Part shown: positions 54,285 through 55,283 of the stretch, one piece after another | How the letters are laid out: each line of letters begins with the position of its first letter | Position numbering within the stretch: position 1 is the stretch's first letter | NCBI GenBank assembly: GCA_965249225.1 | Contig: CBDFLT010000007.1 | Location: forward strand, 198,213 to 262,212 | Direction: 5' to 3' | Length of the DNA: 64,000 bases | DNA from: Dehalococcoidia bacterium | GTDB lineage: Bacteria; Chloroflexota; Dehalococcoidia; Lucifugimonadales; G963668185 | Made by a program: the position numbers and the translations under genes | Notes under the pieces: model-generated | Seen by the model: the letters and a program-made list of their open reading frames with translations, nothing else | Told to the model about the DNA's origin: nothing | Database searches by the model: none

Positions 54285-55046
54285 CTACACAGGCTTACTG
54301 AGCTGCTCCTCCTCCCATTCGTTGTCCACGTCCCCGGCGTAGAACCTTTCGGGGTGCTCGACCGACATCATCTGCACGCGGATGATGTAGTTGTCGGGGT
54401 CCAGCTTGACGCCCTTGCGCCACTCGGCCATGGCCTCATCCAACTTGCCGGCCCGATAGAGATCGAGTCCCTTCTGGTAGAAGGTATTCGACTGGGAGTG
54501 GTTGGGTCCCAGGTCCGTACTCTCTTGGCCGTTGGTCCCGTCCAGGCTGCCGCCGGTGGCCCAGTTCTCCACAACCGCCTTGGTGTCGGCGTTCCAGACC
54601 TCGAACGAGGCCAGCTCCTTGTACTGAACGGTCCCGCGCTCGTCGATCAGAAAGCCGTTGGGTACGGCCTTGAAGCCATAAAGCCGGCCCAGCAGGTTCT
54701 CCTCGTCTACGACGGTGGTGAAGGTGACTCCAGCCCTCTCAACGTATGGCCGTGCTCTGTCGGCGCCCTGGGCGTCTACGGCCACCGAGAGGACCTCAAC
54801 GCCGCTGTCCTTGTGCTTCTCGTAAAACTGCTGCCATACAGGCAGCTGCTCGCGGCAGCTTCACCAGGAGGCCCATGTAAAGAGGACCACTCTCTTGCCC
54901 CGGTAGTCCGAGAGGCTCACCCGGTCTCCGTTGAGAGAGGGAAGGGTGAAGTCGGGGGCCTCGTCGCCTACGTTTACAACGCCCGATATAAGTGTCGTTA
55001 TTTCATACCTCGCTTGCGGTCCAGATTCCGGTCCGACCGGAGCCAA
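54285..55046 (-). CDS. TlpA/redoxin-like thiol-disulfide oxidoreductase with C-terminal TPR-like segment and in-frame UGA in the active site (putative selenoprotein)
   Basis: Track ORFs 54861..55046 and 54285..54785 are in the same frame and joined by the TGA at 54863-54861: ...[35 protein letters not shown]-[U][29 protein letters not shown]... The only in-frame start before APDF is TTG 55046. Confidence 0.6.
54825..54851 (-). promoter_or_regulatory. SECIS-like stem-loop downstream of the redoxin UGA
   Basis: GAGCA-GCTGCC-[UGUAU]-GGCAGC-AGUUU. The core is 6 bp with a flanking extension, and the apical loop lies at +21..+25 from the UGA. Confidence 0.4.
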
Positions 55047-55055
55047 CGGCCCCGG
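55037..55055 (-). promoter_or_regulatory. SECIS-like stem-loop downstream of the glutaredoxin-like UGA
   Basis: CCGGGGC-[CGUUG]-GCUCCGG is a 7-bp stem including one G-U pair. The loop starts at +17 from the UGA. The stem-loop overlaps the TTG start of the next gene. Confidence 0.4.
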
Positions 55056-55283
55056 CTAGAAGCTTCAACCGACCCCGTGAAAGCCGACGGTGACCTGGTC
55101 TCCCTCGACCATGACCGGCGTAATCCTCTCGCCGTCGGTCAGCTTCTCAACCGTGGCCCATTCTTCGGGATTGAGGGAGAGGTCGATGGCGTCGTACTCC
55201 GTTTCCGCCTCATCCAACTCACCTTGAAGAGCAGCAGAGTACGAGCAGTCCGGGTGGGTATATACGACAATCCTGTTGGCCAT
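55056..55283 (-). CDS. glutaredoxin/NrdH-like small redox protein ending ...GVG-U-S-F-stop (putative Uxx-star type selenoprotein)
   Basis: MANRIVVYTHPDCSYSAALQGELDEAETEYDAIDLSLNPEEWATVEKLTDGERITPVMVEGDQVTVGFHGVG. This is followed by TGA (55067-55065), AGC, TTC and TAG (55058-55056). The N-terminal motif is C-S-Y-S rather than CxxC. Confidence 0.55.

Follow-up and report, generated by a model that had tools for sequence, protein, structure and literature searches.

In this study, we analyzed a 64,000-nucleotide stretch of the genome of a Dehalococcoidia bacterium (contig CBDFLT010000007.1, positions 198,213 to 262,212; hereafter the window) and identified on its minus strand, which also carries the other gene, the motifs and the hairpins of the window described below, a redoxin-TPR gene at 54285..55001 with an in-frame TGA at 54861..54863. 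Our preferred reading, which we hold at a probability of roughly 0.88 on sequence grounds, is that this is one intact gene encoding a cytoplasmic selenoprotein of ~238 residues, a redoxin with a selenocysteine (Sec, U)-x-Cys active site and a TPR tail. The comparative evidence indicates that the TGA is almost certainly a real Sec codon. It is the sole interruption between two open reading frames (ORFs) of the same frame, 54861..55046 and 54285..54785, as an earlier note on this DNA had pointed out, and the read-through translation contains no stop among the 25 codons from the TGA to the GTG at 54785. The codons TTT ACA TGG GCC TCC TGG, of which the last four encode W-A-S-W, stand 5' of the TGA; directly 3' of it are AGC TGC CGC, followed by GAG CAG CTG CCT GTA TGG CAG CAG. 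The TGA aligns with the first (nucleophilic) Cys of CxxC in ResA/TlpA, and the TGC at 54855..54857, two residues further on in a U-S-C arrangement, encodes the partner (resolving) Cys, which aligns with the second Cys of CxxC and is invariant in the family alignment.

DNA was retrieved for 80 homologous loci, mostly from Dehalococcoidia/SAR202, with some from Acidobacteria, Poribacteria and Caldilineaceae and one from a bin labelled Marinimicrobia. The pattern W-A/G-S-W-TGA-x-TGC-R was found in identical register in 79 of the 80, and the homologues do not terminate at this point, a possibility the earlier note had raised, but continue in frame with the protein conserved on both sides of the TGA. 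By this comparison the TGA-x-TGC pattern is far beyond chance. A homologue with an in-frame TGA is present in 13 of 30 genomes of the same order, with a single TGA in 12 and two in the remaining one (G024). Among 75 distinct homologues, the middle residue of U-x-C is mainly Ala (32) or Gly (31), with Val (4), Thr (3), Arg (2), Ser, Asp and Leu (one each) making up the remainder, and no sampled Sec form other than the window protein has Ser there; the closest public homologue of the window protein has only 65% identity to it. Full-length homologues that have no TGA carry Cys at the Sec position with the same one-residue spacing, in the forms CSC (P0119, P0240, P0257), CTC (P0132), CIC (P0145), CQC (P0184), CHC (P0222), CYC (P0134) and CGC (P0128, P0224, P0238), and more distant relatives carry the ordinary W-A-T/S-W-C-x-P-C. 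The U-S-C spacing in place of C-x-x-C that the earlier note had described is therefore genuine and is conserved throughout the subfamily, in the Sec and the Cys forms alike.

This conservation bears directly on the explanation that the motif is an artefact of assembly or sequencing, produced either by a 3-nt deletion from a canonical C/U-x-x-C or by a TGC or TGG miscalled as TGA. The source genome is a metagenome-assembled genome (MAG)-grade assembly of 2.04 Mb in nine contigs, 86% complete, which leaves some room for such errors, but the same spacing and TGA recur in 79 independent assemblies and in reads published in 2008, and the same spacing is found in the C-x-C homologues. The identical spacing across the subfamily thus excludes a 3-nt assembly deletion by comparison, and an artefact of either kind is exceedingly improbable.

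Several of the homologous sequences depart from the common pattern. The 80th locus, L052 (2657-2680, Dehalococcoidia), reads TGG TGA GGG TGA AGG (W-U-G-U-R), possibly a double-Sec (U-x-U) variant or a TGC-to-TGA error in a long-read assembly. True nonsense codons within otherwise intact homologues were found at L050 (TAG replacing Glu) and L077 (TAA replacing Tyr), which are either pseudogenes or assembly errors. Four proteins, P0123, P0143, P0182 and P0160, are without both redox residues (WASW-S-G-S-R, S-E-S, D-A-S and D-Q-S, respectively) while retaining the QLPxWQ block as well as the TPR tail, and appear to be paralogues without redox activity.

The region 3' of the UGA contains a hairpin resembling a selenocysteine insertion sequence (SECIS) at 54827..54849. 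Its core stem, GCUGCC-UGUAU-GGCAGC at 54846..54830, pairs 54846..54841 with 54835..54830 over 6 bp and presents the loop UGUAU (54840..54836) at +21..+25 after the A of the UGA, precisely where the earlier note had placed it. Folded alone, the hairpin has an energy of -12.5 kcal/mol (z = -2.3), with 7 of 200 shuffled sequences folding as well or better. The fold of a single sequence is weak evidence, and the support for the hairpin therefore comes from its conservation across homologues, which was assessed in an ungapped alignment of the 80 sequences (75 distinct). A core of 5 bp is paired in each of the 75 distinct sequences, save for one non-standard cell at pair 24-34. The core is formed by the Leu and Pro codons CUG CC against the Trp and Gln codons GG CAG, the whole hairpin spanning the codons Q-L-P-[V/G]-W-Q. 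Only one core pair varies, 22-36, in which the Leu codon contributes its first base and the Gln codon its wobble base; this pair is C-G in 53 sequences, U-A in 17 and U-G in five, with no mismatch; zero C-A combinations were observed versus ~12 expected from the column frequencies, and the changes are synonymous and compensatory. Variation at the neighboring Gln wobble position, column 21, is independent of that at column 36 (G-G 36, G-A 7, A-G 22, A-A 10), which argues that the covariation of 22-36 is not simply an effect of GC content. The lower stem is only partly conserved, being paired in 47-88% of sequences.

The loop also appears constrained. It reads N-G-K-N-U in 74 of the 75 sequences, with G-K always present, and the loop codon in Sec forms is limited to Val (56), Gly (18) and Ile (1), whereas in Cys/Ser forms it encodes Gly, Leu, Ser, Ala, Glu, Asp, Ile, Val or His. 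The narrow range in the Sec forms compared with the broad one in the Cys/Ser forms indicates that the hairpin loop is probably under selection at the RNA level. When the sequence of one Cys-form locus (L122) was folded, a single anecdotal case, its hairpin was weaker than that of the window (-6.3 versus -12.5 kcal/mol). Bacterial SECIS elements are reportedly hairpins just 3' of the UGA, with an apical loop 16-37 nt away and a G among the first loop bases. The window hairpin agrees with this description in its distance, in the G of its loop and in its conservation among orthologues, and we regard it as a putative SECIS.

The source genome encodes all the components expected for Sec incorporation, which disposes of a doubt raised in the earlier note as to whether Sec machinery would be present. 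A tRNA-Sec with anticodon UCA was found, and profile searches identified SelB (336 bits), SelA (544 bits) and SelD (385 bits). The SelD gene (G000:C9:148702-149622) has one in-frame TGA, and the genome's SelD is itself a predicted selenoprotein. In the window, TGA terminates 11 of the 35 long ORFs; it is an ordinary stop here, and the genome is therefore not recoded.

Taken with the conserved hairpin, these results also allow us to weigh the possibility that the gene is broken or split, such that the TGA terminates translation to give an N-terminal peptide of 46 or 61 residues, with or without a separate C-terminal product of 166 residues. Gene callers do annotate such a split, as in the truncated public homologues described below, the window copy departs from several residues that are invariant in the family, and real nonsense codons exist elsewhere in the gene at L050 (TAG) and L077 (TAA). 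Against these observations stand the presence of the same TGA in 79 of 80 loci from several phyla, the conservation of frame and protein on both its sides, the hairpin, the complete Sec machinery and the Cys at the Sec position in homologues, and we consider a broken gene very unlikely.

The selenoprotein gene as we read it has 238 codons, with Sec as codon 47, and extends from a probable ATA start at 55001..54999 to a TAG stop at 54287..54285. An alternative TTG start at 55046, the one given in the list of ORFs, would yield 253 codons with Sec as codon 62. In 62 of 79 homologues an ATG is located 38-52 codons before the UGA, most commonly at -46, and the window codon at -46 is the ATA, with an AGG 6 nt upstream of it. 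Two further loci, L037 and L097, likewise have ATA at -46, where homologues start with ATG (or TTG/GTG), and in L037 a stop lies four codons upstream of the ATA without a canonical start in between. A 9-bp hairpin of the upstream gene includes the TTG at 55046 in its loop and stem. Because homologue starts peak at -46 and the TTG lies inside that hairpin, the ATA at 55001 is probably the likelier start of the two.

The earlier note had also assigned the protein to the TlpA/ResA-like redoxins and recognized in it a redoxin-TPR fusion, and both assignments stood up to scrutiny. A thioredoxin-fold redoxin domain of the ResA/TlpA/DsbE type occupies 54600..54971, as evidenced by Pfam matches to AhpC-TSA (1.1e-25) and Redoxin (5.3e-22), by profile matches to structures in the PDB (3kcm, 3gl3 and ResA) and by Foldseek. 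In the alignments to the ResA/DsbE/TlpA-like structures, U falls on the first Cys and the Cys at +2 on the second Cys of C-x-x-C, with a one-residue gap. An AlphaFold2 model built on 77 read-through homologues (pLDDT 93.8, pTM 0.91) consists of a thioredoxin fold followed by four helices. Its best Foldseek matches in the PDB were DsbE, ResA and TlpA-like proteins, with target-normalized TM-scores up to 0.88 (3gl3, ResA), matches that span only ~140 of the 238 residues. The same search of the PDB returned no solved counterpart of the helical C-terminal tail attached to such a fold.

A single TPR motif is located at 54390..54488, where the model has two helices. It comprises one 34-residue repeat, matched by Pfam TPR_2 at 3e-5 and 24 bits versus a gathering threshold of 27, and the family profile matches consensus TPR designs from the PDB over its residues 168-201; the fusion is conserved across the family. 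Family alignments further define a family-specific C-terminal tail at 54297..54398. At the other end of the protein, ~10-25 residues precede the redoxin domain in the window gene, and homologues begin with MTT... ~13 residues before the first strand. The window N-terminus has no hydrophobic stretch, as judged by inspection of the sequence and not with a dedicated signal-peptide predictor, and the protein is therefore probably cytoplasmic, unlike ResA and TlpA.

Directly upstream of the redoxin gene, at 55056..55283, lies a gene for a second predicted selenoprotein, a glutaredoxin-like protein of the UXX-star type that matches NCBIfam NF041211 (UXX-star family 2) with 112.8 bits versus a cut-off of 100. 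The protein has 72+3 residues, an active site C-S-Y-S and the ending ...GVG-U-S-F-stop, with its UGA at 55067..55065 and its TAG at 55058..55056. The 9-bp hairpin mentioned above, at 55036..55056 with the loop GUU, starts 11 nt after that UGA and is, on the basis of its fold, the candidate SECIS of the UXX-star gene. In 30 of the 79 loci the redoxin gene is immediately preceded by a UXX-star gene of the same strand, with TGA-x-x-stop in 28 of these, and among the 12 genomes of the same order that carry the short redoxin, the two genes are adjacent in 10. To judge from gene order, the UXX-star selenoprotein is the most likely redox partner of the redoxin.

Other neighbors were less consistent. 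A gene for a CopA-type heavy-metal P-type ATPase is located upstream on the same strand in 12 of the 79 loci, directly adjacent in L046, L075 and L076, and an SDR gene is directly downstream in 16 loci; the upstream flanks concerned are those of L046, L075, L076 and L058-L072. Neither a CopA nor an SDR neighbor is present in the window, and as both are clade-restricted they offer weak leads only. In a SAR202-like contig (L121:5588-6560), a GRDB/PrdB-like gene follows the redoxin homologue by 6 nt, and its called stop is a TGA within ...LTST-U-PVCNR... (UxxC), a sign that it encodes another predicted selenoprotein. As a conserved neighbor this gene was rejected, since no match to it was found in the 79 loci or the window, and its presence at L121 is incidental.

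The CopA neighborhood is relevant to an explanation in which the protein is the same selenoprotein, and its U-x-C site handles a soft metal (Cu(I), Hg(II) or the like). The protein would then serve in metal chaperoning or detoxification, possibly together with the UXX-star protein. The copper chaperone CCS uses C-x-C as a Cu(I)-binding motif, and relatives of TlpA/Sco have roles in the delivery of copper. The CopA-type gene upstream in 12 of 79 loci would be in keeping with such a role, as would a remark in a 2026 review of selenoproteins (PMC13188914) that Sec in UXX-star proteins may be a metal ligand. Weighing on the other side, that neighborhood is confined to a few related loci and missing from the window, all the closest solved relatives of the protein are thiol-disulfide oxidoreductases, and no further conserved metal ligands were identified in it. 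A role in metal handling is accordingly an unlikely one in our estimation.

If the gene encodes a thiol-disulfide selenoprotein, as we favor, a plausible course of events can be outlined. SelB and Sec-tRNA would bind the hairpin, leading to insertion of Sec at the UGA. The substrate then attacked by the selenolate would be an oxidized one, either a disulfide or perhaps a peroxide or a sulfenic acid, and the Cys at +2 would resolve the adduct, giving an 11-membered selenenylsulfide ring under strain. As the rings of C-x-C motifs are reportedly strained and easily reduced, this one may by analogy be easily reduced in turn. Re-reduction would be carried out by a partner, most plausibly the neighboring UXX-star protein or thioredoxin. 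The TPR repeat and the conserved helical tail may pack on the redoxin domain, where they would probably provide a docking surface or one for binding a partner or substrate. A more specific and distinctly tentative proposal is that the U-x-C redoxin and the UXX-star protein form a dedicated relay of two selenoproteins, in which the flexible G-U-x-x tail of the latter swaps a selenenylsulfide or diselenide with the TPR-docked U-x-C site. The two genes would in that case be translationally linked, because the candidate SECIS hairpin of the first covers the initiation region of the second. To our knowledge, a Sec-to-Sec relay has not been demonstrated in bacteria.

A number of observations weigh against the interpretation of the window gene as an intact and functional selenoprotein gene, or against particular parts of it. 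The start codon is either non-canonical (ATA) or badly placed (TTG). In a 71-nt context, the fold of the hairpin region is indistinguishable from that of shuffled sequences (z = -0.3), and an Rfam scan of 54700-55120 returned no match to a SECIS model, only two chance hits below threshold. The hairpin RNA is built from the codons of a conserved peptide, such that RNA and protein conservation are confounded, and the covariation of pair 22-36 could partly reflect GC content. With respect to the proposed partnership, the UXX-star gene also occurs in many genomes without the redoxin and is present in 24 of 31 genomes overall, and we infer the substrate and redox partner of the redoxin from gene position only. 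Lastly, the tail of the window protein departs from near-invariant family residues at K224V, W227M, A228S and Q245E (54353-54377 and further on), changing IIRKQIWA to IIRVQMMS and WQ to WE. Given those departures, together with the uncommon Ser as middle residue and the odd start codon, the window copy may have undergone some functional decay.

The preferred reading of the gene as a selenoprotein has consequences for how its relatives are annotated. A total of 378 homologous proteins were found, and among the 120 listed nearly all have 164-193 residues and begin immediately downstream of Sec, several of them at the codon for the x of U-x-C, a start assigned by the gene caller. They appear N-terminally truncated because gene callers split the gene at the UGA, and the window gene is one more selenoprotein cut in this way, in a family that is widespread in SAR202/Dehalococcoidia. 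Two public records, P0067 and P0153, read W at the Sec position (WASW-W-G-C and WASW-W-V-C, respectively), and at a related locus, L092, the DNA shows TGA there; the W probably results from use of a TGA=Trp code by the gene caller on AT-rich SAR202-like contigs.

The window gene can be placed in a family that has been catalogued since 2008, and current understanding is unchanged by the finding. On the evidence of sequence comparison it is a member of the selenoproteins termed Prx-like (UGC-containing), or UGC-containing TlpA disulfide reductases. Zhang and Gladyshev (2008; GOS Table 2) listed Prx-like (UGC-containing) under pfam00578 with the motif UGC, 46 Sec sequences and 855 Cys homologues. 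Their GOS supplement holds, under the heading #Prx-like UGC-containing, reads such as ...MWASWUGCRGQLPGWQSFYEKH...ELDPENWLIRKQLWAIETPEAFYDGNVDYGWQ..., and the family also appears in the 2026 review (PMC13188914). A BLASTP comparison of the window protein with GOS read JCVI_READ_1095901167516 gave 40% identity over 234 residues (E 2e-61), extending through the redoxin domain and the tail. The family and the window protein share the AhpC-TSA/redoxin fold, the block WASW-U-x-C-R-x-x-L-P-x-W-Q with a single Sec, and a TPR followed by a tail of the form E/DPxNW/YxIRKQxWAxExPExFY. The window protein thus has the characteristics of the family, that is the pfam00578/cd02966 fold, Sec-x-Cys (with S for G), full-length collinearity and a host with selA, selB, selC and selD. 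The finding is accordingly sound, and it is not new, since the literature has contained this family, together with its motif and TPR tail, from 2008 onward. The spacing and the fusion that the earlier note had called unusual do differ from canonical TlpA, but both are defining and already published features of Prx-like (UGC-containing).

We know of no experimental characterization of any member of that family. Placed in a thioredoxin fold, a Sec-x-Cys site can be expected to show unusual redox behavior, and the recurrent pairing with a second selenoprotein, UXX-star, provides a concrete candidate partner.

Comparison with other known proteins helps to delimit the family. The best NCBIfam match of the window protein (5e-43) was NF041054 (WAxxUGC_long), the ResA-like WAxxUGC motif-containing protein, with which it shares the motif block and a similar C-terminal region. 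Membership was rejected, as the match scores 147.6 bits, where the cut-off is 300, and begins only at profile position 81, leaving positions 1-80, an N-terminal extension, unmatched. A scan of the window's genome revealed no member of NF041054 above the cut-off (118.6 + 20.7 bits). The window protein is, as far as these profile matches indicate, a relative of that longer form and not a member. Assignment to the peroxiredoxins (Prx/BCP) was likewise rejected, as the active site reads L-F-T-W-A-S-W-U-S-C and not P-x-x-x-T/S-x-x-C, and the NCBIfam peroxiredoxin models scored only 20-38 bits.

ResA, TlpA, DsbE (CcmG) and StoA (PDB 1st9, 1su9, 1jfu, 3gl3, 3kcm and 4nmu) have the same thioredoxin fold with a ResA-type insertion, and their block W-A-S-W-C-x-P-C-R-x-x-x-P aligns residue by residue with that of the window protein. 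They are membrane-anchored or exported proteins with C-x-x-C, no Sec and no TPR tail, whereas the window protein has the U-x-C site, shorter by one residue, has no hydrophobic stretch at its N-terminus and is extended at the C-terminus by an additional helical domain of ~90 residues. Sec-x-Cys spacing is also known from three other selenoproteins (PMC13188914), namely DUF1573/OS_HP2 (UGC), the thioredoxin-like selenoprotein Sec.2 (UxC) and the SO_0444 Cu/Zn efflux transporter (UxC), but these belong to unrelated folds or families, and no sequence similarity between them and the window protein was detected. Within the Prx-like (UGC-containing) family itself, the compared GOS read and one other carry an N-terminal domain that the window protein does not have, and all 33 matching GOS sequences have U-G-C, whereas the window has U-S-C and the sampled Chloroflexota loci have Ala (32) about as often as Gly (31). 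What our comparison suggests beyond the existing catalogue is therefore a motif that is U-x-C and not strictly U-G-C, a recurrent UXX-star neighbor and, in the window copy, a divergent tail.

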